A stretch of DNA of 32,000 nt from Thermosulfurimonas dismutans (GTDB lineage Bacteria; Desulfobacterota; Thermodesulfobacteria; Thermodesulfobacteriales; Thermodesulfobacteriaceae), in contig NZ_LWLG01000003.1 in assembly GCF_001652585.1 (NCBI RefSeq), positions 1 through 32,000 on the forward strand, read 5' to 3'. The translations under genes and the position numbers were made by a program. The notes below the pieces were generated by a model, which searched no databases, was not told the origin of the DNA, and saw nothing but the letters and a program-made list of their open reading frames with translations. Positions 14,699 to 31,242 of this stretch are shown one piece after another (position 1 is the stretch's first letter; every line of letters starts with the position of its first letter).

Positions 14699-15334
14699 AT
14701 GAGACATCGCAAGTTGAGTCGTAGGCTAGTGACTAAGTGGGAACACCGAATTTCCATGATGCGTAACCAGGTTACGGACCTTTTACGTTATGGCAGGATT
14801 ACCACTACTCTGGCCAAGGCCAAGGAGCTACGCCGGGTGGCGGATAGAATGATCACCCTGGCCAAGCGCGGAGATCTGGCCTCCCGGCGCCGGGCGCTGG
14901 CGGTTATCCGGGACAAGGCCGTGGTGCGTAAGCTTTTTACGGAACTTCGTGAGAAGTACATGGATCGTCCGGGGGGCTACACCCGAATTATCAAGATTGG
15001 ACCCCGCCGTGGGGATGCGGCCATGATGGCCATTGTGGAGCTGGTGGAGGAAAAGCTCCAGCACAAGCGTTCCAAGAAGAAGATCGAGGCTGAAAAGAAG
15101 GCCGAAAAAGAGATTCGCGAGGCTTTAAAGAAAGAGGAGCCGAAACCTGCGGAGGAAACCCAACCTGCCGAGGAGGCGTCCGGGAGCCAGGAAGCGGCCC
15201 CGGCTGAAACCTCCGAGGCCGAAACTGCGGCTCCGGAAAAGACTCAGGACGAGGCCCAGGCTTCTACCTCTTCCGAGTCCGAAGAGGGCTCCGAACCCTC
15301 CGCCGAAACTTCCTCCAAGGAAGCCAAGTCCTAA
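14699..15334 (+). CDS. rplQ: 50S ribosomal protein L17 with long acidic C-terminal extension
   Basis: The N-terminal ~120 aa is canonical ([10 protein letters not shown]...[24 protein letters not shown]). It is followed by a ~90-aa K/E-rich then E/A/S/T/P-rich low-complexity tail. Confidence 0.94.
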
Positions 15335-15392: not shown

Positions 15393-15453
15393 TCCTGACG
15401 CTAAAACTCAGCGTCCGGCGATCATGCCGGTCGGCTGAAATGGATTGTTAAGA
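15393..15453 (-). repeat. attC-like site (terminal, cassette E)
   Basis: Minus-strand read: TCTTAAC...inner arms (CAGCCGACCGGCATGATCGCCGGACGCTGAG)...GTCAGGA. It shares the CTGAA-N-ATTGTTA and ACG-N-AAACTCAGCG blocks with the other copies. Confidence 0.7.
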
Positions 15454-15456
15454 ATT

Positions 15457-15711
15457 TTAATATACTTCCCTTCGATGACCTACTTTTAGGATATAAATCT
15501 CCTTCTTTTTCCAGTCTACATTAAAAAGGACTCTGTAATTCCCTATTCTCAACCTGTAATCTGCTAAAGGATGAGTTTTTAAATGTTTTATTTGTGAAAT
15601 GTTTGGAAAATTTGCTAACTCTTCTATTCCTTGCTTAATTTTTTTCAAGTTCTTCCGATCAATTTTCTTCAAATCTTTAAATACGCTTTTGGCATAAATT
15701 ATTTTAAACAT
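15457..15711 (-). CDS. RelE/ParE-family type II toxin
   Basis: 84 aa; FKDLKKIDRKNLKKIKQGIEEL...YRLRIGNYRVLFNVDWKKKEIYILKVGHRREVY, the classic RelE/ParE C-terminal pattern. Overlaps the upstream small ORF by 8 nt. Confidence 0.85.
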   Translation of the reverse strand: MFKIIYAKSVFKDLKKIDRKNLKKIKQGIEELANFPNISQIKHLKTHPLADYRLRIGNYRVLFNVDWKKKEIYILKVGHRREVY

Positions 15712-15892
15712 TTAATTTTTTCCAAATTTCTTCATGAGTAAAAACCTCTCCATTTTCGATCTCTTTTTTTCTTTCTTCAATTTCTCTTTTAAGCTTTTGG
15801 TATTTTTCTTGCTTTAAAAGAATTTTGGCAAAATATATAATCTTTTCTTTATCTTCAGGATCAAGTTTGTTTAAGATATCCAATTTTTCCAT
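15704..15892 (-). CDS. putative antitoxin (by position, upstream of the RelE/ParE toxin)
   Basis: 62 aa, helical and charged. Translationally coupled to the toxin. GGAG Shine-Dalgarno upstream (AAGTTGGAGAAATATTATG). No family recognised by eye. Confidence 0.6.
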   Translation of the reverse strand: MEKLDILNKLDPEDKEKIIYFAKILLKQEKYQKLKREIEERKKEIENGEVFTHEEIWKKLNV

Positions 15893-15965
15893 AATATTTC
15901 TCCAACTTGCTTAAATCTTTATCTTGCGAAGTAGGACTTATTTTCTTTTTATCTCGGATCGTTCC

Positions 15966-16084
15966 ATTTGTGAAGTATACTCCTTAGCGGTCTATGCGGT
16001 CTTGTTGGGCTGGTAGGCCGGTCAAATATTTGAAAGCGTTTGCGGCTGGGGTTTTGCCAGGTTCGCTGAAGAGGTTTGTTATTA
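15966..16084 (-). repeat. degenerate attC-like site (cassette D / E boundary)
   Basis: Minus-strand read: TAATAAC-AAACCTCTTCAGCGAACC...GACCGCTAAGGAG-TATACTT-CACAAAT. The R''-side block CGCTGAAG-N-TTTGTTA matches the other copies and the inner arms CTCTTCAGCG / CGCTAAGGAG pair. The GTTRRRY box is lost. Confidence 0.45.
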
Positions 16085-16195
16085 CTGGAAGCATCTTTTG
16101 CTAGACACCAGAACCCTATGAATATCAAGGGTTTTGAGGTCTATAAAATGTCTACTCTTTGATGACCCCATTAATATTATTACCGTAACTTTCAT
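16082..16195 (-). CDS. hypothetical micro-ORF (37 aa) in a short cassette
   Basis: My translation: MKVTVIILMGSSKSRHFIDLKTLDIHRVLVSSKRCFQ. Strong Shine-Dalgarno (GAGGTGG, 4 nt before the ATG). The stop TAA lies inside the TAATAAC box, as in the other cassettes. No family recognised. Confidence 0.3.
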   Translation of the reverse strand: MKVTVIILMGSSKSRHFIDLKTLDIHRVLVSSKRCFQ

Positions 16196-16274
16196 GTTCC
16201 CACCTCGAATTTATGTTTTCTCTAACTTAGCTCTTTGTTTTGTATGACGAGAAAATTTTATTTTCATTATTATT

Positions 16275-16346
16275 TTCTAACGTCATGGGTCACTTGCCGC
16301 CAAGGAGCGCAGCGGATTGGCGGTCAAGTGCACCCAATTGTTAGCA
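16275..16346 (-). repeat. attC-like site (cassette C / D boundary)
   Basis: Minus-strand read: TGCTAAC-AATTGGGTGCACTTGACCGCCAATCCGCTGCGCTCCTTGGCGGCAAGTGACCCATGAC-GTTAGAA. Arms TTGACCGCCAA / TTGGCGGCAAG pair. Confidence 0.8.
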
Positions 16347-16348
16347 TT

Positions 16349-17215
16349 TTATTTTAATTCAATGAAAGCTTCTTCATTGTCTGTAAATAATTCTGCAATA
16401 TTATTATGATAAGTAGCTAGCCACGAATATTTGGACTTGATTTTATCGTTTTCTGTAGCATTATATGCATTTCTAATATTATTACCATGTTTTTTTAGCC
16501 AGTAGTCAATATTGTATTGATAACCTTCATTAATAATGCGTTGTCTTTCTTCTTTATTAGCATTATTATAGCGTTCAACTTGTTCTTTGGAATAACGCCA
16601 ATCCAAACCTTCAAGACATATGGTCATATAGTCCAAAAAAATAATTTCTTTATTATCAACTATTCCCTTTCTGAATATACTTAATGGATCTACTTCTGGA
16701 GCATACCATTTCCTATGTGGATGATTCGAGAAATATTCAAACACATCATTAGTTATTGCAATCACCGGCACACTAATGGATTGTTCTAAATGATATGCTT
16801 GCAATAAACTTTTACTAATTATAATATCTTGATCGCTATACCACCATCCGATATCAATTCCTCCCCTTAGAAAAATCGAGTCAAGTACACATGCAGCTTG
16901 AGAATAAGCAAGGCTAAGGAATTCCGACATAAGTGGATCAAAATCGCCTTCACTCTGGGTAGCCTTTGACTTGAGAGGAATATGTATGACCAAACAATCA
17001 GAAAAAGCTAATACTTTTTTGTTATATAATTTGTTTATGTGAGAAATAATTTTTTCTGTTGGTTTATAATAAAATTGTTTTTGAACGTGCCATAATTCTT
17101 TATAAATAGATTGTATCTCTGTAACAGTTTCAATCTTTGCAATCCTATTTCCAAATCCTAAAATATCAATAAATACGGTAATCCCAATGGATATATCTTC
17201 TGGTTTTATCATCAT
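16349..17215 (-). CDS. hypothetical protein with class-III nucleotidyl-cyclase-like motifs (integron cassette C)
   Basis: 288 aa. GITVFIDILGFGN (cf. F-x-D-I-x-G-F-T), VLAFSDCLVI (second acidic strand), FLRGGIDIGW (cf. R-I-G-I-H-x-G). The ~120-aa C-terminal region is unassigned. The ORF call is solid; the function is motif-level only. Confidence 0.8.
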   Translation of the reverse strand: MMIKPEDISIGITVFIDILGFGNRIAKIETVTEIQSIYKELWHVQKQFYYKPTEKIISHINKLYNKKVLAFSDCLVIHIPLKSKATQSEGDFDPLMSEFLSLAYSQAACVLDSIFLRGGIDIGWWYSDQDIIISKSLLQAYHLEQSISVPVIAITNDVFEYFSNHPHRKWYAPEVDPLSIFRKGIVDNKEIIFLDYMTICLEGLDWRYSKEQVERYNNANKEERQRIINEGYQYNIDYWLKKHGNNIRNAYNATENDKIKSKYSWLATYHNNIAELFTDNEEAFIELK

Positions 17216-17221
17216 TTCTTA

Positions 17222-17283
17222 TGCTAACGTCCAAACTCAACGGCTCGGCGTATAGCCGGATCCGCTGAAGCGAATTGTTAGGT
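17222..17283 (-). repeat. attC-like site (cassette B / C boundary)
   Basis: Minus-strand read: ACCTAAC-AATTCGCTTCAGCGGATCCGGCTATACGCCGAGCCGTTGAGTTTGGAC-GTTAGCA. The arms pair imperfectly, leaving unpaired bases. The LemA stop TAA is inside ACCTAAC. Confidence 0.85.
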
Positions 17284-17943
17284 TTCTTGTTTTTCTCTTT
17301 GCGATACACTCTCTAAAGCTTTTTCAACCTTAGCCGAAGCTTTTTCAGCTGCTTCTAAAACTTTTGAAGATGTGGTTTTTATAAGAGCCTTCAACATTTC
17401 TCCATCATCTGTACGAAATTCTTTTAAAGCTTCCACTGCATCTATTTCAATAGAAAAATATGGAGCTTCTTTAAATCCTAGTGTATGAGCTATAAAGACT
17501 GTTGGAATACTATTTCTAGTTGTATTGTATTCTCTAGCTACTGCATTATATTCTTCTCTCTTTTTCTGTAAATCATTTTCCACATTTTCTAGTTGTTTCA
17601 TTAACATTTGATATGTTTCGTTCGCCTTAAGCTCAGGAAAGTTTCTCATAATATTATTTAATTGCCCCAAAATTTTATCAGCTTTTTGGTAGGATGTCAT
17701 TATTTCTGTAATATTAGCTTCTTTTGATATTGTTATATATGTAAGCTTTTCGTGTGACCCATAAGCAGAAGCTATATCAATCAACTTATTTATTAGATCT
17801 AACCTCTTTTTCATTGCCACTAAAATATTTGAATGTGCTTCTTTTACTAAATGAGCTTTTCTCTGTAATGAGTTATACTGAATCCCCAAAAAAAACATTG
17901 TTCCTATTAAAATCAAGAAAACAAAAGACAATATATCAAGCAT
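17278..17943 (-). CDS. lemA: LemA family protein
   Basis: 221 aa. N-terminal TM helix, then YNSLQRKAHLVKEAHSNILVAMKKRLDLINKLID and FPELKANETYQMLMKQLENVENDL...YNAVAREYNTTRNSIPTVFIAHTLGFKEAPYF, the LemA signature blocks. Confidence 0.9.
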   Translation of the reverse strand: MLDILSFVFLILIGTMFFLGIQYNSLQRKAHLVKEAHSNILVAMKKRLDLINKLIDIASAYGSHEKLTYITISKEANITEIMTSYQKADKILGQLNNIMRNFPELKANETYQMLMKQLENVENDLQKKREEYNAVAREYNTTRNSIPTVFIAHTLGFKEAPYFSIEIDAVEALKEFRTDDGEMLKALIKTTSSKVLEAAEKASAKVEKALESVSQREKQET

Positions 17944-17961
17944 TTTAGGCCTCCATAACTT

Positions 17962-18285
17962 TTATTCATTTTTAGGTAATATAATTCCCATTTTTGCTTC
18001 AGCTATCTTAAAATTCGTGCCACTAATATCAACAGCCTTAAATCTTTTTTTAATTAATTCTTTAATATATAATTTATTATAAATAAAAGGAAACACAAAC
18101 CATGATAATCCGCCAGTGATAATAGCTAACAAAAAACTAATAATTGCCCACTTCCAATCACCTCTAAAAAGAGGGACAAAAACTTCAAAAAATAACATAG
18201 TCCATGAAAATCCTATTGGCGCCTCTTTTATTTCTTTGGTAACTGGATGTTGAAAAATAATTTTTCCGTAAGCCATAATCCACAT
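17962..18285 (-). CDS. small two-TM membrane protein (DUF2628-like)
   Basis: 107 aa. GFSWTMLFFEVFVPLFRGDWKWAIISFLLAIITGG resembles the GF-x-W-x-AFFF...W motif of DUF2628-type proteins. Lies 18 nt upstream of lemA in the same cassette. An alternative start is ATG 18276. Confidence 0.75.
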   Translation of the reverse strand: MWIMAYGKIIFQHPVTKEIKEAPIGFSWTMLFFEVFVPLFRGDWKWAIISFLLAIITGGLSWFVFPFIYNKLYIKELIKKRFKAVDISGTNFKIAEAKMGIILPKNE

Positions 18286-18345
18286 CCTAACGCCAAACCT
18301 CAGCGGCCCACTGTAAAGCGGGTCCGCTTAAGAGATTTGTTAGGT
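18285..18345 (-). repeat. attC-like site (cassette A / B boundary)
   Basis: Minus-strand read: ACCTAAC-AAATCTCTTAAGCGGACCCGCTTTACAGTGGGCCGCTGAGGTTTGGC-GTTAGGA. The stop codon of the 366-aa ORF is inside ACCTAAC. The next ORF's ATG abuts GTTAGGA. Confidence 0.85.
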
Positions 18346-19440
18346 GCTCACCTTAAAATCTTTTGACAACATTAACGAGGCCATAGAGGCACTAATAAAA
18401 CATATCCCTTTAATTTTTTTTGCTATTTTAAATCCTTCATTTCTGTAAGTTGAAAGCATTTCTGCTAATTTCCCTAATTTATCAGTTGATAAAACCATTT
18501 TTACAGCAGTTCCACTAAAAAAATGTCTTAGCTGAAAATGTTTTTTACCATTTTCATTTAATAAAATGCCATGGTCACCACTACAAATAAAAAACTCCCC
18601 TCCATTTCTACAAAGGCGACTTGTCATGTACAAACCAAATCCGGAATTGTGCCAAGGATCATTTCTATTAATTCTTCTCCCCTTGAAAACTTTACCAGAT
18701 ATACCAGGTAGCAAGGCCTGTTGAATTGCATCTGAGTGAGATTCTATTTTTAGATAAGGATTACTAGATAAGGCCTTTTTAATCCCTTTACCTGAGTCCA
18801 GTATTGCTATTTCCGCTTTATGATATTGTGGCCAATATTGAGCGCAGTACCATAGGTCAGGGGAATCGCTATGTTCTAAAATATTTCTTAGTATTTCTCT
18901 CAATGAATATGTTATTGTTTCAGCTAAATTTCCATATTTTTGCTGAGTTAATCTTATTGCTAACTCTTCAGATTTTGACTCTATAATTTGTTGGACTGGT
19001 GCCAAATTATCTTTAGCTTCTTTTTCAATATCCGATAACTTCCAAGAAGTTACTGGAAGATATGTACTACTCCCAAATGCTTCACCTGGTTTTTTACCGT
19101 GATCTAGATAAAAAGCCTTAAAAAAGCCCATATGGGCTGCATAATTTTTATTTTGATGGTTTTTACACCAAATACATCTGTGATCATTGAATTTTGAATA
19201 ATCTCGAATAATTTTGGCTACATAAATCATTGAAAATGGCTCAATTCTCCCCATTTGAGCAAAATCAATTACAACTTTATGATTTCGTGGGATAGAAAAT
19301 AAGTTGTCACAAAAGGCCAATACAGCTTCCAGTGATGGATTTTGCGGAAAATATACCAATGTCTTCATTATATGTTGCCTAACATATCTTTTATGCTTTC
19401 TTGGATAGCCCCCCTCTAAGGCTATATTAAATTTGGCCAT
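18340..19440 (-). CDS. hypothetical GHKL/HATPase-domain protein with STAS-like N-terminal region (integron cassette A)
   Basis: 366 aa. N-box-like LREILRNILEHS, G1 ILDSGKGI, G2 NSGFGLYM. The N-terminal KVVIDFAQMGRIEPFSMIYVAKIIRDY looks like an anti-sigma-antagonist (STAS) fold. An alternative start is M25 (19368), just after a GTTAGGC core. Confidence 0.8.
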   Translation of the reverse strand: MAKFNIALEGGYPRKHKRYVRQHIMKTLVYFPQNPSLEAVLAFCDNLFSIPRNHKVVIDFAQMGRIEPFSMIYVAKIIRDYSKFNDHRCIWCKNHQNKNYAAHMGFFKAFYLDHGKKPGEAFGSSTYLPVTSWKLSDIEKEAKDNLAPVQQIIESKSEELAIRLTQQKYGNLAETITYSLREILRNILEHSDSPDLWYCAQYWPQYHKAEIAILDSGKGIKKALSSNPYLKIESHSDAIQQALLPGISGKVFKGRRINRNDPWHNSGFGLYMTSRLCRNGGEFFICSGDHGILLNENGKKHFQLRHFFSGTAVKMVLSTDKLGKLAEMLSTYRNEGFKIAKKIKGICFISASMASLMLSKDFKVST

Positions 19441-19622
19441 ATATCAGAACTTCGCCAAAGTCAAACAGCTTTTTCAATAATTTTTTATGAAAAATTTTTT
19501 ATTTTTAAAATTTTAAAAGATTATTTAGAAATATCTTAAATAAAGAGCTTAAATCTCTCCAAAAAGGATGGTAGCTTTTTATGTAAACTTGAGAGAAGTA
19601 ATATAATTTTCTAATATTCCCT

Positions 19623-20215
19623 TTGGCGTGTAAGCAAAAATGGAAAAGGATAACTTATCTAGCCGTGGAAAGAAACGTGGCGCCCTCTACCCAGAACCAG
19701 GCCTTGAATGCCTTGCTCTTTTTCTACCGTAAGGTCCTCGAAAAAGACATCGCTTCATACATCGAGGCCGTAAAGGCCCGGGAGAGGCCAAGGTTTCCGG
19801 TGGTGCTTTCCGAGCTTGAGGAGACCTATTATCTAGTTTGTGTCCTGATGTACGGAGGAGGTCGCCTAGGAAGCCAGGCGGTAAGATTGTGCGTGAAAGA
19901 TCTTGATCTCGAACGAGGGCTTGTAACGGTCTATTCGGGGAAGGGTGATCGGGACCGGATAACCGTTTTTCCCAAGAGGCTTGTTCTGGAATTTGAAAAT
20001 TACTCGCCAGGGTGCGTAAAATCTACGAGCAGGGTTGGCGGACGGAGGGCGGCGGGGGGCCGCGGTGGTTAGTCAGCTGGATCGCTGAAGGGTTCTTTAG
20101 GGCCGGTTTTTTTCGGTTGAAGGGGCCATCGGCCCCGAATAGAATGTCCCTAGGGTCGGCTCTTCCTATACCCAGGGGTAAAAAGGCTTCAAGGAAATTC
20201 TTTGCGGAGCGTTCG
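19623..20215 (+). pseudogene. intI: integron integrase (IntI-like tyrosine recombinase) remnant, 5'- and 3'-truncated and frameshifted
   Basis: LAVERNVAPSTQNQALNALLFFYRKVL...RFPVVLS...RLCVKDLDLERGLVTVYSGKGDRDRITVFP is colinear with IntI1 (STHRQALAALLFFYGKVL...[24 protein letters not shown]). The reading frame switches near 20005 (VRKIYEQ...EGGGG continues in another frame). The ~55 N-terminal aa and the whole catalytic C-terminal half are absent. Confidence 0.75.
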
Positions 20216-20218
20216 AGC

Positions 20219-21685
20219 ATGGGTAAAGATCCCGGTGGGCAGGTCGGAGGGCTTCTTTCGTATCTGGCGCTGAAAGAATCTCTGGCTGAAATCCAAAACT
20301 TTTTGCAGGAGCTGGCCAGGAGGGGCGAGGTTTATGTCACCGGAGGAGCGGTAAGGGATATCCTGCGGGGAGATAGGGTAGGAGACCTGGACCTCACGGT
20401 GGTGGATCTCTCTCCGCGAGAGGTGGCGGAGGAGGCCGCAAGGAGGCTTTCCTGGGCTCTGGTTCCGCTTCACGAGGAGTTCGGAGTCTTCCGGGTGGCG
20501 CGCGGGAGTTTTAGCCTGGATATTTCCGGCCTTCGTCCCGGGGCTATGAATATTGAGGACGATCTTCGGTTGAGGGACTTTTCCTTCAATGCCCTGGCAG
20601 TTCCTCTTTCTAAAGCCCTTGAGAGATCGCCTTCGGAGTGGCCTCTTCTTGATCCCTGCCAAGGGCTTCGGGATCTTAAAGCTGGTCTGATCCGGGCTAT
20701 CTCTCGACAAAATCTTATAGATGATCCCTTGAGGATCTTAAGGGCCTATCGTTTTTACGCCTTGGGATTCGGAGAAATAGAGGCGGAGACCCGGAGGTGG
20801 CTTTCGGCAGAAAGGGCAAGGCTTTCGAAGGTAGCCCGGGAGCGCATTCTCTATGAGCTTATGCTCATTCTCGGCCGAATGGCTGGAGAGGCCTTTTCCC
20901 TTATGGCCGAAGACGAGGTTCTCTTCGAGATCTTTCCCGAATTCGCGGAAGCCCGGGGGGTGCCCCAACCCTCCTTCCATCACCTGGATGTTCTGGGCCA
21001 CAGCCTTCTCGCCCTCGCAAGAGCCGAGGAGGTCCTGCGGGCCCCGGGTAAGTTTTTCGGGGATCCCGAACCCTTCGCGGAACTTCTCTCAGACCCCGAG
21101 CGAAGGATAGCCGTCAAATTGGCCGCCCTTTTTCACGACCTCGGGAAACCGAGAACTTTTGCCGTTCGGGACCGGATCACCTTTTACGAACACGAAAAAG
21201 TGGGGGCCCGGATCTTTCTTGAGATGGCGGAACGATTGCGTTTCAAGAAGGATCTCGCTAAAAGGGTAGCCCATCTCATCCGGAACCACATGCGGCCCTT
21301 TCATTTACTTGCTGAAAAAGAAAAAGGCCGACTTACAGCCAGGGCCAAGAGGAGGCTTTTGAGGGATGTTCCAGAGTATCCCGATCTCTTTGTGGTGGCC
21401 ATGGCAGATGGTCTGGCGGCGAGAGGTCCGGACAAGGACCCAGACGAAGAGGAAAAACTTGCAGAATTTTTTAGGGAACTCCACGAGTTTTACCGAGAAA
21501 CCTTGCGGAAGGTGGAGAGGAAGAGACTGGTTACCGGCCGTGACCTCATAGAGATCTTCGGACTTGCGCCTGGTCCCATCTTCCGGAAACTCCTTGAAGC
21601 CGTAGAGGAGGCCCAGGTTGAGGGCCGGGTAAAGACCCGCGAAGAGGCCCTGGAGTATATCGCCGGAATCATAGATACCTTATAG
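20219..21685 (+). CDS. cca: CCA-adding tRNA nucleotidyltransferase (PolyA-pol head plus HD domain)
   Basis: GGAVRDILRGDRVGDLDL head motif, RLRDFSFNA, HD-domain HHLDVLGHSL...ALFHDLGKP. The track ORF starts at 20012, but its first 69 aa read through intI debris. ATG 20219 (or 20144) is the likely start. Confidence 0.85.
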   Translation: MGKDPGGQVGGLLSYLALKESLAEIQNFLQELARRGEVYVTGGAVRDILRGDRVGDLDLTVVDLSPREVAEEAARRLSWALVPLHEEFGVFRVARGSFSLDISGLRPGAMNIEDDLRLRDFSFNALAVPLSKALERSPSEWPLLDPCQGLRDLKAGLIRAISRQNLIDDPLRILRAYRFYALGFGEIEAETRRWLSAERARLSKVARERILYELMLILGRMAGEAFSLMAEDEVLFEIFPEFAEARGVPQPSFHHLDVLGHSLLALARAEEVLRAPGKFFGDPEPFAELLSDPERRIAVKLAALFHDLGKPRTFAVRDRITFYEHEKVGARIFLEMAERLRFKKDLAKRVAHLIRNHMRPFHLLAEKEKGRLTARAKRRLLRDVPEYPDLFVVAMADGLAARGPDKDPDEEEKLAEFFRELHEFYRETLRKVERKRLVTGRDLIEIFGLAPGPIFRKLLEAVEEAQVEGRVKTREEALEYIAGIIDTL

Positions 21686-21692
21686 ACCTCCT

Positions 21693-23249
21693 TCATTTTA
21701 GGGGTGGTCGGCCACGGCGGATGGGGAAGTGGTTTTCGAGTGCCAGCTTCTTGATACGGTAGCGGAGTTGTCGGAAGGTAAGCCCTAGTTCCCGGGCCGC
21801 ACGGGCGATAACAAAGTTGTTACGGCGCAAGGCCTCCAAGATTTCGTCAGCGGAAGGTTCTTTTAAAAAGACCTCGGTGGTTAGGTTCCTCCTCTTTCCA
21901 CCATTCTTAAGATTTTCTTCAAGACTCAAAAGCTGGGAAACCAAGGCCTCAGGTACCAGGTTTTCCTCAGCCACGATAAAAAGCCTTTCAAGGACATTCT
22001 CTAGCTCTCGCACATTTCCAGGCCAGGGATATTCTACCAGTTTCCGCAAGGCCCCTGGGGAAAGAATCAAGCCTCTTCCATAGGTCTTTTCCATGCGGTG
22101 CAGGAGGAATTTGACCAATCCCGGAATATCCTCTCGTCGCTCACGAAGAGGGGGGATATAGATGGGAAAGACATTGAGCCGGTAGAAAAGATCCTCCCTG
22201 AAGGCCCCTTCGCGGACGAGTTTTTCTAGATCCCGGTTGGTGGCCGCAATGATGCGCACATCCACCCGTCGGGTCCGAGTGCTTCCCAAGCGTTCGAATT
22301 CCCGCTCCTGAATGAAACGCAGGAGTTTGCCCTGAAGCGGTAGCGGCAGTTCCCCGATCTCGTCTAGGAAGACCGTGCCTCCGTCAGCGAGCTCCAGGCG
22401 TCCGGGCTTGCTGCGATCTGCCCCGGTAAAGGCCCCTCGTTCGTAACCGAAAAGTTCAGCCTCAAGGAGATTTTCCGGAAGGGCGGCGCAGTTAACTTTC
22501 ACGAAAGGCTTTCCGCGTCTGGGGCTGAGTTCATGTATGAGTCTGGCCGTAAGGGTTTTACCTGTGCCGGATTCCCCGAGTAGCAACACCGTGGCCCGAG
22601 CTGGAGCTACCTGTTTCACCAGGCTCAAGACCTCTTTCATCTTCGGGCTACGAGACCCATACATGAACTCACTGAAGCGGGCCTTAAGTTCGTCCCTTAA
22701 GGCCAAGTTTTCCTCCCGGAGGTGGGTCTCCCGGGCCTCCACGCTCCTTTTGAGCTTCACAAACTGGGCAATCAGAAAGGCCATGACCTCTAGGAACTTC
22801 ACGTCCTCCTCAAGGGCCACCTGGTAGCTGAAGAGCCTATCCACCCATAGGACACCCAAGGTTTCATGCTCGGCCCGGATGGGCACTGCGATAAAGGAAA
22901 TCACCTCCTTGGTAAGGCGCCGGGCACCGGTGCGGTTTAAAAAGAGCGGCTCTTGGCTCACATCGGAGACTATGCAGGGTTCCCCGGTAGCAAAGACCCT
23001 CCCGGTCACGCCTTCCCCGATTTCATAAATCCCCTGCGCCTCTTCTTCCGGACTCAAGCCATAGGAAGCCTTAATCTTCAAGTGTCCTGAAGCCTCGTCC
23101 CATAGGACTATGGAAGCCCTTTTCATATCGAGCTTTTCCGCCAGGATACGGAGGATCCTGCGTAGGGTTTCCTCAAGCTCTAGGGCCTGTCCTATAAGTT
23201 CATGGGTGGCGTAAAGAACTTCTAATTTTAGGGCTTCTAGATTTTTCAT
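21693..23249 (-). CDS. nifA: sigma-54-dependent transcriptional activator, NifA-like (GAF + AAA+ + HTH)
   Basis: 518 aa. N-terminal GAF, Walker A GESGTGKT, sigma-54 contact loop ELFGYERGAFTGA, C-terminal HTH AARELGLTFRQLRYRIKKL. Sits in a nif cluster downstream of nifV. The symbol rests on context. Confidence 0.8.
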   Translation of the reverse strand: MKNLEALKLEVLYATHELIGQALELEETLRRILRILAEKLDMKRASIVLWDEASGHLKIKASYGLSPEEEAQGIYEIGEGVTGRVFATGEPCIVSDVSQEPLFLNRTGARRLTKEVISFIAVPIRAEHETLGVLWVDRLFSYQVALEEDVKFLEVMAFLIAQFVKLKRSVEARETHLREENLALRDELKARFSEFMYGSRSPKMKEVLSLVKQVAPARATVLLLGESGTGKTLTARLIHELSPRRGKPFVKVNCAALPENLLEAELFGYERGAFTGADRSKPGRLELADGGTVFLDEIGELPLPLQGKLLRFIQEREFERLGSTRTRRVDVRIIAATNRDLEKLVREGAFREDLFYRLNVFPIYIPPLRERREDIPGLVKFLLHRMEKTYGRGLILSPGALRKLVEYPWPGNVRELENVLERLFIVAEENLVPEALVSQLLSLEENLKNGGKRRNLTTEVFLKEPSADEILEALRRNNFVIARAARELGLTFRQLRYRIKKLALENHFPIRRGRPPLK

Positions 23250-23274: not shown

Positions 23275-24381
23275 CTAACAAATGTTAAACCAGTATATCC
23301 TAACCAACTTTTCCACTTCCTGTTTATTTAGCGGCCGGCCTAGTTTAGAGGAGAGTTTGCGGACCTTTTTTACCAGGCTTTCGAGCTGCTCTTCAGGGAA
23401 TTCAAGTTTCCACTCCTTAAACAAGGCCTTCAGGGCCGCCCGTCCGCTTTTGGCCCCGAGCGATAGTTCCCTCTTCAGTCCCAGGGCTTCCGGGGGAAAA
23501 GGTTCATAGAGTTCTGGGGCCTTTTTGAGACCTTCCACATGAAGGCCACTTTCGCAGTAAAAGAGTTTCCGGCCTACTACAGGCCTGAATTCTGGAATAA
23601 CCTCACCGGCTTGCCAGGCTACATAATGAGAAAGTTTCGGAAGAAGCTCTATACGATAGTGCTTCTGACCTTTTCGGAAATAGAGATAGGCCAGCACCTC
23701 TTCAAGGGAGGCAATGCCGGCCCTCTCCCCTAGTCCCAGAACACTTACATCCACCCAGTCGGCTCCGGCGGCAAGGGCAGAGACGGCGTTGGCTGTGGCT
23801 AGGCCGAAATCATTGTGGCCGTGAAACCCTATTTCGGTTTCTGGAAAAGCCTTCTTGAGGGCCCGGATGAGTTCCGCTACCTCCAAGGGATTGAAAAGCC
23901 CTAGGGTATCCGAGATCCTTATCCTTTGTGCCCCGGATGAAATGGCCACTCTACAAATTTGAAAAATAAAAATCCTGTCAGCCCGAGAAGCGTCCTCAAG
24001 CCCCAGGGTGACGCATGGAGAGTATCTCGCGGCTAGCGATATCATCTCCTCCGTCTTTTTAAGAAGGACCTCGGGATCTAAACGAAGCCGGCGTTTGAGC
24101 TGGATATCCGAAACTGGTACTCCAAGATTAAATCCCACTTCCGGCAACCGGGCGGCCTTCTCTATATCTTCTTTTTTTAAACGCAACCATACGCTGAATC
24201 TCACTCTCTTAGACACCCTACGGGCGGAAAGGATCAGAACCCGCAGCCTTTCCTCTCCCACCACTCCGAGCTCCACTTCCTCAACCCCCAGATCCGCAAG
24301 ACGCCTCACAATTTCCCTCCTCACCCTGAACGGAAAATACACCCCCCAGCGCTGAGTCCCCTCCCTTATGGTGGTGTCCAT
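23275..24381 (-). CDS. nifV: homocitrate synthase family protein (NifV-like)
   Basis: DTTIREGTQ...GVEEVELG...LGLEDASRAD...HGHNDFGLATANAVSALAAGADWVDVSVLGLGERAG, colinear with NifV. I prefer ATG 24381 (MDTTIREG, GGTGATGAGG Shine-Dalgarno) over the track's 24396 because of the promoter position. Confidence 0.8.
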   Translation of the reverse strand: MDTTIREGTQRWGVYFPFRVRREIVRRLADLGVEEVELGVVGEERLRVLILSARRVSKRVRFSVWLRLKKEDIEKAARLPEVGFNLGVPVSDIQLKRRLRLDPEVLLKKTEEMISLAARYSPCVTLGLEDASRADRIFIFQICRVAISSGAQRIRISDTLGLFNPLEVAELIRALKKAFPETEIGFHGHNDFGLATANAVSALAAGADWVDVSVLGLGERAGIASLEEVLAYLYFRKGQKHYRIELLPKLSHYVAWQAGEVIPEFRPVVGRKLFYCESGLHVEGLKKAPELYEPFPPEALGLKRELSLGAKSGRAALKALFKEWKLEFPEEQLESLVKKVRKLSSKLGRPLNKQEVEKLVRIYWFNIC

Positions 24382-24405
24382 GAGCCTCATCACCAAAAAT
24401 AAAAT

Positions 24406-24485: not shown

Positions 24486-25421
<936 letters not shown>

Positions 25422-25451: not shown

Positions 25452-25769
25452 ATGAAGATGATCAAAGCCGTAATAAGACCGGAAAAGACGGAAGAGGTGG
25501 TGGAGGCCCTGGCTCAGGAGGGCTTTCTGGCCCTAACCAGGGTGGACGTAGTAGGACGAGGAAAGCAGGGGGGCCTTACGGTGGGAGAGGTGGTTTACGA
25601 CGAGCTCCCCAAAAGCCTCCTTCTCCTGGTGGTTCCGGACGAAGAGGTCGAGCGGGTCTGTACCACCATTATGGAGGCCGCCCGCACCGGGCGCTTCGGA
25701 GATGGCAAGATCTTTGTCTCGCCGGTGGAAGAGGCCTATACCATCCGCACCGGAAAGGCCGAACTCTAG
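25452..25769 (+). CDS. nifI1: PII-family nitrogenase regulator NifI1
   Basis: 105 aa; MKMIKAVIRPEK...VVGRGKQGG...GDGKIFVSPVEEAYTIRTG (PII fold). Directly follows nifH. Confidence 0.9.
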   Translation: MKMIKAVIRPEKTEEVVEALAQEGFLALTRVDVVGRGKQGGLTVGEVVYDELPKSLLLLVVPDEEVERVCTTIMEAARTGRFGDGKIFVSPVEEAYTIRTGKAEL

Positions 25770-25779
25770 GAGGTGAATC

Positions 25780-26157
25780 ATGGCCTTAAAGGAGATTATA
25801 GCCATTGTGAGACCCAACAAAATGCTTGCCACCAAGAAGGCCCTCGAGGAGATGGGATTTCCCTCCTTTACGGCCTTTAAGGTGCTTGGCCGAGGGAAAC
25901 AGGGAGGGAGGCTTAAGGAACTCGCCTATAGGGTAAGCCCTGAAGTGGCCGAAAAGCTCGAGACTTCCTCTTATGGTTTCATACCCAAAAGGCTCCTTTT
26001 GGTAGTGGTGCCGGAGGCCATGGTCCCCAAGGTAGTGGAAAGAATTATTCGAGTAAATCAGAGCGGTGAGCACGGAGACGGCAAGATCTTTGTGCTCCCG
26101 ATGGAAGGGGTCTTTAGAGTCCGCACCGGTGAGGAGGGCCTTGAGGCCCTTTTCTAA
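25780..26157 (+). CDS. nifI2: PII-family nitrogenase regulator NifI2
   Basis: 125 aa; second PII paralogue with a longer T-loop region (GRGKQGGRLKELAYRVSPEVAEKLETSSYGFIPKR); GDGKIFVLPMEGVFRVRTGE. Confidence 0.9.
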   Translation: MALKEIIAIVRPNKMLATKKALEEMGFPSFTAFKVLGRGKQGGRLKELAYRVSPEVAEKLETSSYGFIPKRLLLVVVPEAMVPKVVERIIRVNQSGEHGDGKIFVLPMEGVFRVRTGEEGLEALF

Positions 26158-26179: not shown

Positions 26180-27013
26180 ATGATCAGACATCCATGTTTT
26201 GATGAGACTGCTCATCGGACAGTAGGAAGACTTCACCTTCCGGTAGCTCCGCGGTGCAATGTGCAGTGTGCCTATTGTGATCGACGGTATCCCTGCGTGA
26301 GTGAAAATCGGCCCGGGACCGCGCGCCGGGTAATCCCTCCTGAAGAGGCTCCAGACTATGTGGAGATGGCCCTTACGCTTGAACCTCGCATAGAGGTGAT
26401 AGGTGTGGCCGGCCCAGGGGATCCGTTGGCTAACGAAGAGACTTTCCGGGCACTCTCACGGGTGCGAGAGGCCTTTCCGAGACTCAAGTTCTGCGTTTCC
26501 ACCAACGGTCTTTTACTCAAAGAAAAACTCCCGGACTTGGTTTCTCTTGGAGTACAGTTTCTTACCGTTACGGTGAACGCTGCCACCCTGGAGACCGCCT
26601 CCAAATTCTACCTTTGGGTGCGTTACCAGGGGAAGAAGCTTACCGGAAAAGAGGCCGCAGAAGCGATTCTTTCTTGCCAGATGGAAGGTTTGAGGGAGGC
26701 TGCCAAGGCGGGTATCCGGATCAAGGTCAACACCGTGCTCGTGCCGGGAATAAATGATGCGGAAGTAGGTGAAATTGCCCGTAGGGTATGGGAGGCCGGG
26801 GCCCATCTCATGAACATCATCCCCCTCATTCCTCTGGGACGTTTTCGTGACCGGCGGCCACCCACGGAGGCCGAACTCCGCTGGGCTAGACGGTTGGCCT
26901 CCCGGTTCATGCCTCAGTTTCTCTCTTGTCGGCGCTGCCGGGCCGATGCCGCTGGTGTTCCAGGTGAAGGCGATTCCTTACAGACAATTCTATGGGCGGC
27001 TGCCATATCTTAA
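26180..27013 (+). CDS. nifB: radical-SAM FeMo-cofactor biosynthesis protein NifB (stand-alone SAM domain, no NifX-like extension)
   Basis: 277 aa. HPCFDETAHRTVGRLHLPVAPRCNVQCAYCDRRYPCVSENRPG matches the NifB N-terminal signature (HPCY...[24 protein letters not shown]). C-terminal CRRCRADAAG. Confidence 0.9.
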   Translation: MIRHPCFDETAHRTVGRLHLPVAPRCNVQCAYCDRRYPCVSENRPGTARRVIPPEEAPDYVEMALTLEPRIEVIGVAGPGDPLANEETFRALSRVREAFPRLKFCVSTNGLLLKEKLPDLVSLGVQFLTVTVNAATLETASKFYLWVRYQGKKLTGKEAAEAILSCQMEGLREAAKAGIRIKVNTVLVPGINDAEVGEIARRVWEAGAHLMNIIPLIPLGRFRDRRPPTEAELRWARRLASRFMPQFLSCRRCRADAAGVPGEGDSLQTILWAAAIS

Positions 27014-27032
27014 AAAATAAAGGAGGGACGCC

Positions 27033-28463
27033 ATGGGTTACTATCAGATGAAATGTGATGCCTGCATCCCTGAAAGGGTAAAGCATGTTTGCATCGTAGA
27101 TGAGGACAGGAAGACCATACCCAGATGTAATGCTCCTACCGTACCGGGTGATCTTACGGAGCGTGGGTGAGCCTTTGCCGGGGCCCGCGGGGTCGTGGGC
27201 GGACCAATTACGGATGTAATTCAGATGATACACGCCCCGGTAGGCTGCGGTTATTACACTTGGGGCACGCGCCGCCATCTAGGAGACGTTTACAACTGGG
27301 CCGCTCCCGGAGTGCTTGAAAATGAGGCCAACCATCGCCGCCACTGTTACACCACGGCCATGACCGAGCAAGATATCATTTTCGGCGGTGCGGAAAAACT
27401 GAAGAGGGCCCTACTTGAGGCCTTTCGTATCAATCCCGGTGCTCAGGGAGCCATTATCTATAACACCTGTTCCACCGCCCTTATCGGGGATGACATCGAA
27501 CAGGTGGCTCGAGAGGTATCCGCAATGGTGGGCAAACCCGTCTTTGCTTGTGCCTCTCCGGGTTTTTGTGGAGTCTCTCAGTCCAAGGGACACCATGAAT
27601 TTAACACTCAGTTTTACCGGTGGCTCCTCAAGTATCGTGAGAAACATCCGGAAGTATGTATGAAGGAAGAGGAGAAGACACCCTACGATGTTAATCTCAT
27701 CGGTGATTACAACATTGACTGGGACTTGGTTACGGTAGTGCCGCTTTTTGAGAAGTTGGGTCTGCGGATACTTAATGTCTTTACGGGGAATGCCCGTCTT
27801 AAGGACCTTTTTAAACTTCCAGATGCCAAATTGAATATTGTTCACTGTCAACGTTCGGCTACCTACATCGCGGAACTTCTAAAGGAGGGCTATGAGATTC
27901 CTTTTGTCCGTGTGAGCCTCTTCGGAATCTCCCAGACCGCAAAGTCGCTTCGAGATGTAGCGGCCTGGTTCGGAGAAGAGAAGATGAAGCGTCGGGCCGA
28001 GGAAATTATCGAGGAGGAGACCGCGGCTATAGAGAAGGCTCTTTCCTGGTATCGGGAAAGACTTTCCGGAAAGCGGGTGGCCATTTATGTGGGAGCTCCA
28101 CGGGTATGGCACTGGCCAAAGGTAATGGAGGAACTAGGGATGGAGGTGGTGGCCTGTATGACCACCTTTGGACACAAAGAGGACTATGAGAAGATCGTCC
28201 AACGCGTAAAACCGGGAACTCTCGTTATCGATAATCCCAACGAGTTCGAGATCGAAGAGATGATCGAGACTTGTAAACCCGATCTTTTCCTCACCGGTCT
28301 CAAGGAGAAGTATCTTGTGCGTAAGTTCGGGGTGCCGACCCTCAATTCACATTCTTACGAAGCCGGGCCGTACGCTGGTTTCCGCGGGTTTGTGAACTTT
28401 GCTCGAGACATTTACCAAGCGGTTTGTGCCCCGGTATGGCGACTCGCCCGTAACGAAATTTAA
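27033..28463 (+). CDS. nifD: nitrogenase MoFe protein alpha chain NifD, interrupted by an in-frame TGA at codon 46 (Sec candidate or pseudogene)
   Basis: ATG 27033 with an AAGGAGGG Shine-Dalgarno. Translation ...[46 protein letters not shown] runs in frame with the track ORF 27195..28463. The cofactor and cluster residues are present (HAPVGCG, CSTALIGDDI, VHCQRSATY, NSHSYEAGPY). Confidence 0.85.
27183..27200 (+). promoter_or_regulatory. candidate SECIS-like stem-loop downstream of the nifD TGA
   Basis: GCCCGC-GGGGTC-GTGGGC. It forms 6 bp (one G-U), or 7 bp with a GGGU tetraloop. It starts 12 nt after the TGA and has a G-rich apical loop. It could also be a chance hairpin in GC-rich coding DNA. 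Confidence 0.3.
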
Positions 28464-28483: not shown

Positions 28484-29956
28484 ATGATAAACCACGTATC
28501 GGAAATACCCATAGAAGGGATAACCTATAAACAACTCCGCATAGAAAAGAAGCCTTTGACGCCGGAATATGTTCCACCACCTCCGGAGCTGGTGCCGGCA
28601 GCCAAACGGGCAGTTTGCATTGATCCCAGCCGCACCTGTATGCCCTTCGGGGCCATGTGGGCTACGTTGGGGGTACATAGGGCTATTCCTTTTGTACAGG
28701 GAGCCCAGGGTTGTACCACTTACGTGCGCTATACTTTTTCCCGTATTTTCCGTGAACCGGCTTCTATCGCTACGGCCTCCTTTCATGAAGATGCCGCGGT
28801 CTTCGGTGGCCGTAAGAACCTTATTCGCGGAGTGCGGAACTTGGTCTGCCGCTATAAACCGGAGCTCATCGCTATCGTTACCACCTGTTCAAGTGAGGTC
28901 ATCGGAGATGACATCCAGAGTTTTCTTGCCGAGGCCCAGGACCTTATGGAGGAAGAATTCGGACCGGAGGTGCTTGATCTTACGAAGTTTGTGGTGGTAA
29001 ACACTCCGAGCTTTGCCGGATCCCATGTGGAGGGCTACAACCGGGCCGCACATGAGTTCCTCAAGGCCCTTTCACGCAAGAGCGGTCAACCTTCCGAAGA
29101 CCTATACTTCATCCCTGGATTTCTCATGCCCGGAGATTTGCGGGAGTTAAAACATCTCTTTGAGCTCATGGGGGTATCCTATCATATCCTCTTTGATATA
29201 AGTGATACTCTCGACTGTCCGCTGGTGGGTATGCCCAACAAGATCCCCTATTATCCTCCGGGAGGTACCCGGGTAGAGGAGTTCGTGCGGGCCGGAGATG
29301 CGAAGGCTATTTTCGCTCTTTCGCCGGATGCCGGGGGAGCCGGTGCGAAATGGCTTTCCCGTCGTCACAAGGTATCGGCCTTTGTGCTTCCCATGCCTAT
29401 AGGGGTGGGCAATACCGATGAGCTCCTCAAAACGGTAAGTGAGGTCTCGGGGCGGCCCATTCCGGAGGCTATACGCTGGGAACGGGGCATCCTCCTTGAC
29501 GCCATGGCCGATACCCTGCACTACACCATGATGAAACGGGTAGCCATCTGCGGTGACCCGGATTTTGCGGCAGCGGCCACGCGCTTCGTCTGCGAACTCG
29601 GTATGATTCCAACTTACATTCTCGTGGGTACCAAGAGTTCTTCGGCTGCGGAAGAGATTTGGAAAGTATGTGAGGAATATAATTACAAACCGGTCATCAT
29701 GAACGGTAGCGACCAGTTCGAATGGGAGTACGCCCTTAAGAACGACAAGCCAGATGTGATCTTGGGACACTCGCGATGTGTAAATATTTCGAAAGAGATA
29801 AGGGTGCCGCTTGTCCGGTTTGGTTTTCCGGTTTATGACCGGATAGGCTATCAACGGGAACCCATCGTGGGCTATCGGGGGGGAGAACGTTTTCTGGCCC
29901 GGATCGTAAACGCCATCCTGGATCATCACTATCCGGACGACCGGACGCATCAGTAA
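28484..29956 (+). CDS. nifK: nitrogenase MoFe protein beta chain NifK
   Basis: 490 aa. P-cluster ligand contexts CMPFGAMWATLG, QGAQGCTTYVRYTF, TTCSSEVIGDDI. GGGGAGGTG Shine-Dalgarno. Follows nifD. Confidence 0.93.
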   Translation: MINHVSEIPIEGITYKQLRIEKKPLTPEYVPPPPELVPAAKRAVCIDPSRTCMPFGAMWATLGVHRAIPFVQGAQGCTTYVRYTFSRIFREPASIATASFHEDAAVFGGRKNLIRGVRNLVCRYKPELIAIVTTCSSEVIGDDIQSFLAEAQDLMEEEFGPEVLDLTKFVVVNTPSFAGSHVEGYNRAAHEFLKALSRKSGQPSEDLYFIPGFLMPGDLRELKHLFELMGVSYHILFDISDTLDCPLVGMPNKIPYYPPGGTRVEEFVRAGDAKAIFALSPDAGGAGAKWLSRRHKVSAFVLPMPIGVGNTDELLKTVSEVSGRPIPEAIRWERGILLDAMADTLHYTMMKRVAICGDPDFAAAATRFVCELGMIPTYILVGTKSSSAAEEIWKVCEEYNYKPVIMNGSDQFEWEYALKNDKPDVILGHSRCVNISKEIRVPLVRFGFPVYDRIGYQREPIVGYRGGERFLARIVNAILDHHYPDDRTHQ

Positions 29957-29967
29957 AGGAGAATAGA

Positions 29968-31242
29968 ATGAGGTCTTGCGGAAATTACGGCTGTATGCCT
30001 TTGAGAATTAAGCCCTGCGGTCTTGCGAGCGAACCTGGGGGCATGACCCAGCGAAGCTGCGTTTATTTCGGCGCCCGCTATGTGCTTGGGCCGATACGGG
30101 AGGCGGTGCATCTGGTGCATGGCCCCGTGGGCTGCGGTTACTATGGAGCTATGGTCCGGGGGGAGGCCAAAGACCTCTTTGGAACCGCACTTACAGCCGG
30201 AGAGATTATTTTTGGAGGTCTTGATAAACTGAGGAAGGCCCTGCATGAGGCCTTTGCCCTTAGACCCTCGGCCCGCGGGGCCTTTTTGTACGCTACCTGC
30301 ACAACGGGGCTTATCGGGGAAGATCTTGCAGGCCTTGCCCGCGAAATCGAGAGAGAATCTGGACGCAGGATCGTGGTGGTGGACTGTCCGGGGTTTTCCG
30401 GAAAGAGCCAGGCCGGGGGCCACGCTGTGGCCTACCGGAGTTTACTTAACTTGGTTCGGCCCTTTTCCAAGGCCGAGCACCCCACGGTAAACCTCATCGG
30501 AGAGTACAATGTAGCTGGAGAGGCCCGGGAGATAAAACGACTTCTTGAGAAACTTGGGGTTAAGGTCCACACGGTGCTTACCGGTGATACCCGTTTTTCG
30601 GAGATAGAGCGACTTTCCCGGGCTCATCTGAATCTCCTTTTCTGCGGTTCAACCGCTAGGGAGTTTGCCTCGGCCCTGAAGGAGCGATTTGGTCTTCCCT
30701 ACCTAAAGGTCTCCTTTTATGGGCTTTCGGCCGTGGGGGCTTCTCTTCGGAAGGTAGGAGAGGCCTTGGGCCTCTCTTCTGACAAGGTGGAGGATCTGAT
30801 TCGGGAGGAGGAGACCCGGACCTTTAGGGAGATAAGGTCCTGGCTTAAACTCTTTTCCGGAAAAAGAGTACTGGTGGTACTTGGGGCCGGGAGACTGGGA
30901 CCCTTAGGGAGAATGCTTAGAGAACTCGGCTTTGAGGTCATAGGGGCGGCTTCGGTCTTCGGGAGCTCCGAAGATCACCAAGAGGCCGCTCCCTTTTCCG
31001 GTTTTCTTACCGATGATCCCGGAGATGACGAATTTGAAAGGGCCCTTTCTATGCTTAAGCCCGATCTCGTGATCACCAACGCCCGAGAGCAGTGGCGAGC
31101 GGTAAAACTTGGTTTTCCCACCCTCTCTTTTCCTCAAGAGCGCAGACGCGGCCCCTACACCGGTTATCAAGGTTTTGTCAATTTTGTTTATAGTTTGGTC
31201 CGCGTTCTTCGGGCTCCGGTGTGGCGCCTCAAAGCCCTATAA
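29968..31242 (+). CDS. nifE: nitrogenase cofactor scaffold protein NifE-like
   Basis: 424 aa, a NifD/NifE-family paralogue. RSCVYFGARYVLGPIREAVHLVHGPVGCG, ATCTTGLIGEDL, LLFCGS. Position after nifK. No nifN follows. Confidence 0.8.
   Translation: MRSCGNYGCMPLRIKPCGLASEPGGMTQRSCVYFGARYVLGPIREAVHLVHGPVGCGYYGAMVRGEAKDLFGTALTAGEIIFGGLDKLRKALHEAFALRPSARGAFLYATCTTGLIGEDLAGLAREIERESGRRIVVVDCPGFSGKSQAGGHAVAYRSLLNLVRPFSKAEHPTVNLIGEYNVAGEAREIKRLLEKLGVKVHTVLTGDTRFSEIERLSRAHLNLLFCGSTAREFASALKERFGLPYLKVSFYGLSAVGASLRKVGEALGLSSDKVEDLIREEETRTFREIRSWLKLFSGKRVLVVLGAGRLGPLGRMLRELGFEVIGAASVFGSSEDHQEAAPFSGFLTDDPGDDEFERALSMLKPDLVITNAREQWRAVKLGFPTLSFPQERRRGPYTGYQGFVNFVYSLVRVLRAPVWRLKAL

Follow-up and report, generated by a model that had tools for sequence, protein, structure and literature searches.

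The nif cluster of Thermosulfurimonas dismutans was analysed in a stretch of 32,000 nucleotides (nt), referred to below as the window (contig NZ_LWLG01000003.1, positions 1 to 32,000 of the forward strand). The nifD gene of this cluster is interrupted at codon 46 by an in-frame TGA. Comparison with related genes makes it very probable that nifD encodes a selenoprotein form of the alpha subunit of the MoFe protein, in which selenocysteine (Sec) would be inserted at UGA46 by the elongation factor SelB and a selenocysteine insertion sequence (SECIS). This reading had been raised in an earlier note on the same DNA, and it is now strongly supported by three lines of comparative evidence: the same TGA is found in 15 genes from two phyla, sister genes have the cysteine (Cys) codons TGT or TGC at this position, and the RNA behind the codon is under selection that is specific to the genes with UGA. 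The phenomenon itself is already known. The note expected a Sec-containing nitrogenase to be novel, which is incorrect, as NifD with Sec at position alpha-62 was described by Howard et al. (2013; PMC3760896).

The predicted read-through NifD and its relatives

The frame begins at ATG 27033, preceded by a good Shine-Dalgarno sequence (AAGGAGGG, 27020-27027), and continues past the TGA, just as the note had described. It comprises 45 sense codons, the TGA and a further 430 sense codons, before a stop at 28461-28463. When Cys is written in place of the internal stop, the product matches TIGR01862 (nitrogenase component I alpha) with 542.9 bits, above the cutoff of 486, over residues 14-471, and this match extends across the TGA site. 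The score against TIGR01284 is 535 bits (cutoff 513), while that against the Group-I nifD equivalog TIGR01282 is 456 bits, below the cutoff of 653, as expected for a clade of Group III type. The motifs that hold the ligands of the cofactor, NIVHCQRS and LNSHSYEAGPY (equivalent to alpha-Cys275 and alpha-His442), align with those of VnfD (5n6y). Exact cluster look-ups of the full-length NifD (with X at residue 46) and of the product of a shorter open reading frame (ORF) that starts at a GTG gave no match, and neither did an exact-sequence look-up of NifK.

Alignment with NifD homologues places UGA46 in the alpha-Cys62 column of the RGCAYAGSKGVV motif, which confirms that the TGA sits at the position of a P-cluster Cys. 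The other P-cluster Cys residues of the alpha subunit are present, namely Cys72 and the Cys of YNTCST. The spacing from U46 to C72 is 26 residues, equal to that between alpha-Cys62 and alpha-Cys88 in RGCAYAGSKGVV...HGPVGC. The closest solved chain is PDB 9spz_A (651 bits over residues 3-473 of NifD). This protein (9spz/9sq3, 'Nitrogenase protein alpha chain') belongs to the same clade and shares the TERG-x-(A/S) motif and the cofactor-ligand motifs; however, it is of the Cys type, having Cys in the column of position 46.

Relatives were collected by a genome scan using one genome per species, which returned 46 loci. Of these, 13 have TGA in the column of codon 46, five from Thermodesulfobacteriota and eight from Bacillota, the latter including Desulforudis sp. 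Tu-874, Neomoorella carbonis, Desulfofundulus thermosubterraneus, Carboxydothermus islandicus and Desulforadius tongensis. Together with the window and Thermosulfurimonas marina SU872 (CP042909.1, locus L047) they make up the Sec-type set of 15 sequences. The other 18 identified loci of the clade have TGT or TGC in this column, and all Group-I NifD loci (L031-L044) have TGC. Codons were compared over 30 clade sequences, 14 with TGA and 16 with TGT or TGC. In all relatives, the 45 codons on the 5' side of the UGA are conserved and in frame. On the basis of these alignments, the Sec form is present in at least 15 genomes over about eight named genera, well beyond the three species reported in 2013, and this wider distribution is new.

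The nearest relative is T. marina SU872, whose nif region matches the window with 98.6% nucleotide identity over 8.2 kb and whose NifH is identical by exact look-up. Its nifD shares the TGA and the sequence that follows, and the gene call on that contig already runs across the TGA to give a product of 476 residues; the two NifD proteins have five amino-acid differences, one of them on the 5' side of the UGA. Sec-type and Cys-type proteins are interleaved on a neighbour-joining tree of NifD, where N. carbonis (TGA, Sec) and N. stamsii (TGT, Cys) are sisters. Global reassignment of TGA was considered and ruled out, because TGA is the stop codon of three confident genes in the window (3 of 38 genes, making it a rare stop).

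A conserved RNA element downstream of the UGA

The stem-loop that the note had pointed out 12 nt past the TGA (27183-27200) is present as a predicted stem of 7 bp. The hairpin alone has a folding energy of -12.2 kcal/mol, and the minimum-free-energy and centroid folds both predict it. RNAalifold, run on the 15 Sec-type sequences, pairs 27183-27189 with 27194-27200 and adds lower pairs between 27180-27181 and 27204-27205; each pair of the stem is kept in 14 or 15 of the 15 sequences. Counted from the UGA, the stem spans +15 to +32, and the loop starts 19 nt past the codon. In the SECIS of Escherichia coli fdhF, the upper helix lies about 11 nt past the UGA, and the criteria of bSECISearch place the apical loop roughly 16-37 nt from the UGA with a G in the first loop positions. 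The predicted geometry fits both. The element resembles that of fdhF in that the stem-loop is part of the coding sequence and closely follows the UGA, with an apical loop that contains G and U (GGGU/GGUC). It differs in having no sequence homology to fdhF and no evident bulged U, and in being invariant among the genes that carry it; binding of SelB is here a prediction.

The evidence for a functional element comes from sequence conservation. A 23-nt block from +15 to +37 (GCCCGCGGGGTCGTGGGCGGACC, 27183-27205) is identical in 14 of the 15 TGA-type genes: there are no mismatches in the window, in T. marina or in 12 of the 13 Sec-type scan loci, and two in the remaining locus, D. tongensis (L027). 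The closest Cys-type genes (L004, L005, L022, L028 and L029) have 0-2 mismatches and the more distant ones 4-9, a gradation which suggests that the element decayed once Sec had been replaced by Cys. Two Cys-type nifD genes from Thermodesulfobacteriota, with TGT or TGC at the codon, keep the block with no change (L004, 6136-6173) and one change (L029, 6127-6164). From their sequences, both genes appear to have switched from Sec to Cys very recently and to retain the hairpin as a fossil.

Conservation of the RNA rather than the protein was assessed over whole genes, at fourfold-degenerate codons in which positions 1 and 2 do not vary within the group. The Sec-type genes have 105 such codons, and the third base is fixed in only eight of them, seven of which are codons +3 and +6 to +11. 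None of the 61 such codons in the Cys-type group has a fixed third base. At codons +6 to +11 the fourfold third bases are identical in all 14 Sec-type genes, whereas third-base identity at the codons of the block is 0.38-0.56 in Cys-type genes. Elsewhere in the gene, fourfold identity between pairs of Sec-type genes is 0.29-0.55, which is near saturation, or 0.76 for one close pair. On this comparison, the SECIS-like RNA element is under purifying selection that is specific to UGA genes. The invariance of the downstream block, together with the whole-gene test of synonymous sites, is new here.

Because the block is identical in all Sec lineages, and because the closest Cys-type genes hold near-intact remnants of it, the sequences point to a single origin of the Sec form. 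This would have been followed by repeated replacement of Sec by Cys, by lateral spread of nif genes between Bacillota and Thermodesulfobacteriota, or by both.

Proposed decoding, alternatives and known selenocysteine proteins

We propose that the ribosome would meet UGA46 while translating nifD, and that the hairpin at 27183-27200, within the longer element at 27180-27205, would act as a bacterial SECIS 12 nt past the codon. The putative SECIS would recruit SelB-GTP-Sec-tRNA(Sec), and Sec would be inserted instead of termination by release factor 2. Sec46 would then replace alpha-Cys62 and give the [8Fe-7S] P-cluster, located at the alpha/beta interface, a terminal selenolate ligand alongside alpha-Cys72 and the third alpha ligand, the Cys of YNTCST (alpha-Cys154 in Azotobacter vinelandii numbering). 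On this scheme, synthesis of full-length NifD would be dependent on selenium and on the Sec machinery. We infer the binding of SelB, the insertion of selenium, the role of Sec46 as a ligand and any physiological consequence alike. A bolder suggestion is that Sec46 is more than a neutral stand-in for Cys: an early UGA with its SECIS might gate nitrogenase synthesis by selenium, and the selenolate might alter the redox behaviour or the repair of the P-cluster in thermophilic anaerobes exposed to sulfide. This would explain why the 23-nt element has stayed unchanged over two phyla despite repeated reversion to Cys, although we regard it as rather doubtful.

Three other explanations of the TGA were weighed. 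The more mundane, also named in the note, is that TGC or TGT was misread as TGA in sequencing or assembly, or that nifD has become a pseudogene through a very recent nonsense mutation. TGA is one base away from TGT and TGC, and 16 relatives in the clade do have one of these codons. Nevertheless, TGA is also found at this codon in 14 further genes that were sequenced independently, two of them (T. marina SU872 and Desulforudis Tu-874) on complete chromosomes, the upstream 45 codons stay conserved and in frame in all the TGA genes, and the codon is followed by a conserved RNA block specific to UGA. A pseudogene would keep neither the upstream frame nor the RNA block over two phyla, and is therefore excluded; the conserved TGA and the element behind it refute the error as well, and the chance that either applies is negligible. 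It is also very improbable that the UGA simply terminates, leaving an alpha subunit split into a 45-residue peptide and a NifD restarted at GTG 27195, with the block serving as a reinitiation signal (GGGG followed by GUG). The ORF from this GTG exists, as the note had said (27195-28463, 422 residues, in the nifD frame), and GGGGUC-GUG does lie inside the conserved block. However, neither product would include the alpha-62 ligand, which is Cys in every non-TGA homologue. Only 2 nt separate the run of G from the GTG, less than a normal Shine-Dalgarno spacing requires; the GTG codes for Val, at a position where Val or Ile is also conserved in Cys-type genes; and the Cys-type sisters are single polypeptides.

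The remaining explanation accepts that the UGA is read through, but without selenium, either by a near-cognate tRNA for Cys or Trp or by SelB carrying Cys-tRNA(Sec) when selenium is low, such that the mature enzyme would usually contain Cys or some other residue. The sequence does not distinguish which residue is inserted, and TGA is rarely used as a stop here. Against this, a UGA-specific, SECIS-like element is predicted by SelB-dependent decoding and not by leaky read-through, and read-through of this kind would be inefficient at an essential ligand of a highly expressed enzyme. We consider it improbable, and retain insertion of Sec at UGA46 as the best explanation.

Several observations weigh against insertion of Sec. 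The stability of the hairpin is not unusual when compared with shuffled sequence (z = +0.66 for the 60 nt after the UGA, which are G+C-rich). Since the fold is no more stable than expected by chance, we do not use its stability as evidence, and the support is comparative. The note had proposed to examine relatives both for TGA versus TGT or TGC at this codon and for covariation in the hairpin; the former was found, with TGA conserved and Cys codons in sisters, but not the latter, as RNAalifold detected no compensatory pairs in the 15 Sec-type sequences. The lack of compensatory changes arises because the element is invariant, so that only sequence conservation and geometry speak for the structure. 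In one Sec-type gene, L027, the stem is weakened at its base by two changes. No Rfam SECIS family was matched at E <= 10 in 27000-27400, beyond chance matches, a result of little weight because bacterial SECIS elements are short and diverse. No tRNA gene was found within the 32-kb window. Among the papers searched, no report was found of selenium incorporation into NifD or any other nitrogenase protein, and up to 2013 N2 fixation had been demonstrated by incorporation of 15N in none of the three species then known to have the Sec-type gene (PMC3760896). For T. dismutans, the genome paper of 2016 states that use of N2 was not analysed in the original description, and its discussion calls the organism diazotrophic.

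The three species of Howard et al. are Thermodesulfatator indicus, from a genus related to Thermosulfurimonas, and two Firmicutes, Candidatus Desulforudis audaxviator and Desulfotomaculum (Desulfofundulus) kuznetsovii. In their NifD, which is of the shorter Group III form, residue 46 corresponds to alpha-Sec62; bacterial SECIS elements, selA, selB and selD are present, and nifN is missing (PMC3760896). Relatives of all three are among our TGA-type loci. A review of 2026 in Chemical Reviews restates the alpha-Sec62 NifD (PMC13474568). Both genome papers on Thermosulfurimonas that were consulted refer to the nif cluster; as the main text of neither contains any 'seleno' term, they are silent on Sec in NifD. 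The NifD described here resembles the published proteins in having Sec at residue 46 with a hairpin behind it, Ala at beta-92, nifE without nifN and a thermophilic anaerobe as host, and also in that the NifH, NifD and NifK of the window contain no other Sec; it differs in genus, being from Thermosulfurimonas. Section 13 of the 2013 paper names the Sec codon as 'amber stop codon, TAG' (PMC3760896), and in all 15 Sec-type nifD genes here the codon is TGA (opal), as expected for Sec.

Two of the features linked to the Sec form in 2013 look different on a larger sample. Ala at beta-92 of NifK was reported to covary with Sec62 (PMC3760896). We find Ala at this position (PFVQGAQGC) in every clade member with a readable nifK, of Sec type and Cys type alike (L001-L030, L036 and L037). 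Because Cys-type members also have it, there is no covariation with Sec on the larger sample; from these sequences, beta-Ala92 is a trait of the clade, arising from shared ancestry, and not an adaptation specific to Sec, a result that is new here. As for nifN, an extra NifN/NifK-like ORF with the motif HGSQGC lies directly after nifK in D. tongensis (L027, Sec-type, about 1444-2857 nt past the nifD stop) and in a metagenome-assembled genome of Desulfotomaculum (L020, Cys-type, about 1651-2980 nt past the nifD stop), which implies that absence of nifN in Sec-type genomes may not be general.

Outside nitrogenase, parallels are found in the [NiFeSe]/[NiFe] hydrogenases and the Sec/Cys formate dehydrogenases, where Sec likewise stands in for a metal-ligating Cys and where Sec and Cys orthologues alternate in close relatives. 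In [NiFeSe] hydrogenase and Sec formate dehydrogenase, however, Sec is at the catalytic metal, whereas in NifD it is predicted to be a ligand of the electron-transferring P-cluster and not of the FeMo-cofactor.

Gene neighbourhood and significance

The features of the nif region are listed in Table 1. The note's statement that the other nif genes are intact holds for nifH, nifI1, nifI2, nifB, nifK and nifE, and internal stops are absent from nifH, nifK, nifE and nifB. Within the window, nifN was not seen after nifE; it may be elsewhere in the genome. The nifB product, encoded between nifI2 and nifD, has 277 residues and consists of the radical SAM part only, without the NifX-like C-terminal domain; it covers positions 1-279 of the 441 in TIGR01290 and scores below the cutoff.

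Table 1. Positions of nifD, its predicted decoding signals and the surrounding nif genes in the window
Feature	Position	Strand	Remarks
nifA-like sigma-54 activator, divergent	21693-23249	-	TIGR01817 517 bits, below equivalog cutoff
nifV-like homocitrate synthase, divergent	23275-24396	-	TIGR02660 319 bits, below equivalog cutoff
nifH	24588-25421	+	TIGR01287 461 bits, above cutoff; same operon as nifD, upstream
nifI1	25452-25769	+	matches P-II proteins; same operon as nifD, upstream
nifI2	25780-26157	+	matches P-II proteins; same operon as nifD, upstream
nifB	26180-27013	+	TIGR01290 265 bits, radical SAM part only; same operon as nifD, upstream
Shine-Dalgarno sequence of nifD (AAGGAGGG)	27020-27027	+	direct reading; 5 nt 5' of ATG 27033
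nifD, full length, nitrogenase component I alpha subunit, short Group III-type clade	27033-28463	+	476 codons including UGA46
In-frame UGA, codon 46, predicted Sec	27168-27170	+	alpha-62 in A. vinelandii numbering, terminal P-cluster ligand (predicted)
Extended element	27180-27205	+	lower 2-bp helix (27180-27181 with 27204-27205) and 23-nt block 27183-27205
Upper stem-loop	27183-27200	+	7-bp stem GCCCGCG/CGUGGGC with GGGU loop (alternatively 6 bp with GGGGUC loop)
TGC, codon 72, second alpha P-cluster ligand (alpha-Cys88 equivalent)	27246-27248	+	HAPVGCG motif, 26 residues past U46
nifK (beta subunit)	28484-29956	+	Ala at beta-92 in VQGAQGC
nifE	29968-31242	+	no nifN after nifE; ammonium transporter gene begins after about 31480 (PF00909, E = 4e-32)

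Two neighbouring regions were also noted. The first, at 15400-20072, is a low-GC island (G+C fraction 0.30-0.42, compared with about 0.52 elsewhere) flanked by the ribosomal-protein/rpoA/rplQ operon, which ends at 15334, and by the gene for the CCA-adding enzyme. It contains two minus-strand ORFs without a Pfam match (16349-17215 and 18340-19440), an ORF of the LemA family (17278-17943), a small membrane-like ORF (17962-18285) and a fragment of a tyrosine integrase (19623-20072), and probably represents what is left of an integrated mobile element. In the window, the CCA-adding enzyme is encoded by a full ORF (20012-21685) with PolyA_pol, HD and tRNA_NucTran2_2 domains. At the corresponding site T. 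marina SU872 (L047, 1-1099) has a PF00872 transposase and only a 158-residue C-terminal fragment of the enzyme, and similarity between the two genomes starts at window position 21211. As judged from these two sequences, the region is a strain-variable insertion site that adjoins the nif cluster.

If NifD is decoded as we propose, nitrogenase would have a single known selenium site, the selenolate ligand of the P-cluster. One practical consequence concerns annotation: gene callers truncate or split a nifD of this kind, with the result that genomes of the clade can be mis-scored as lacking NifD or as non-diazotrophic. The Sec form occurs in genera with cultured species, namely Thermosulfurimonas, Carboxydothermus, Neomoorella and Desulfofundulus, and ready comparisons are provided by natural pairs of Sec and Cys sisters, for example N. 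carbonis with N. stamsii. N2 fixation by thermophiles of hydrothermal vents and the deep subsurface would be tied to the supply of selenium, an idea that has been in the literature since 2013.

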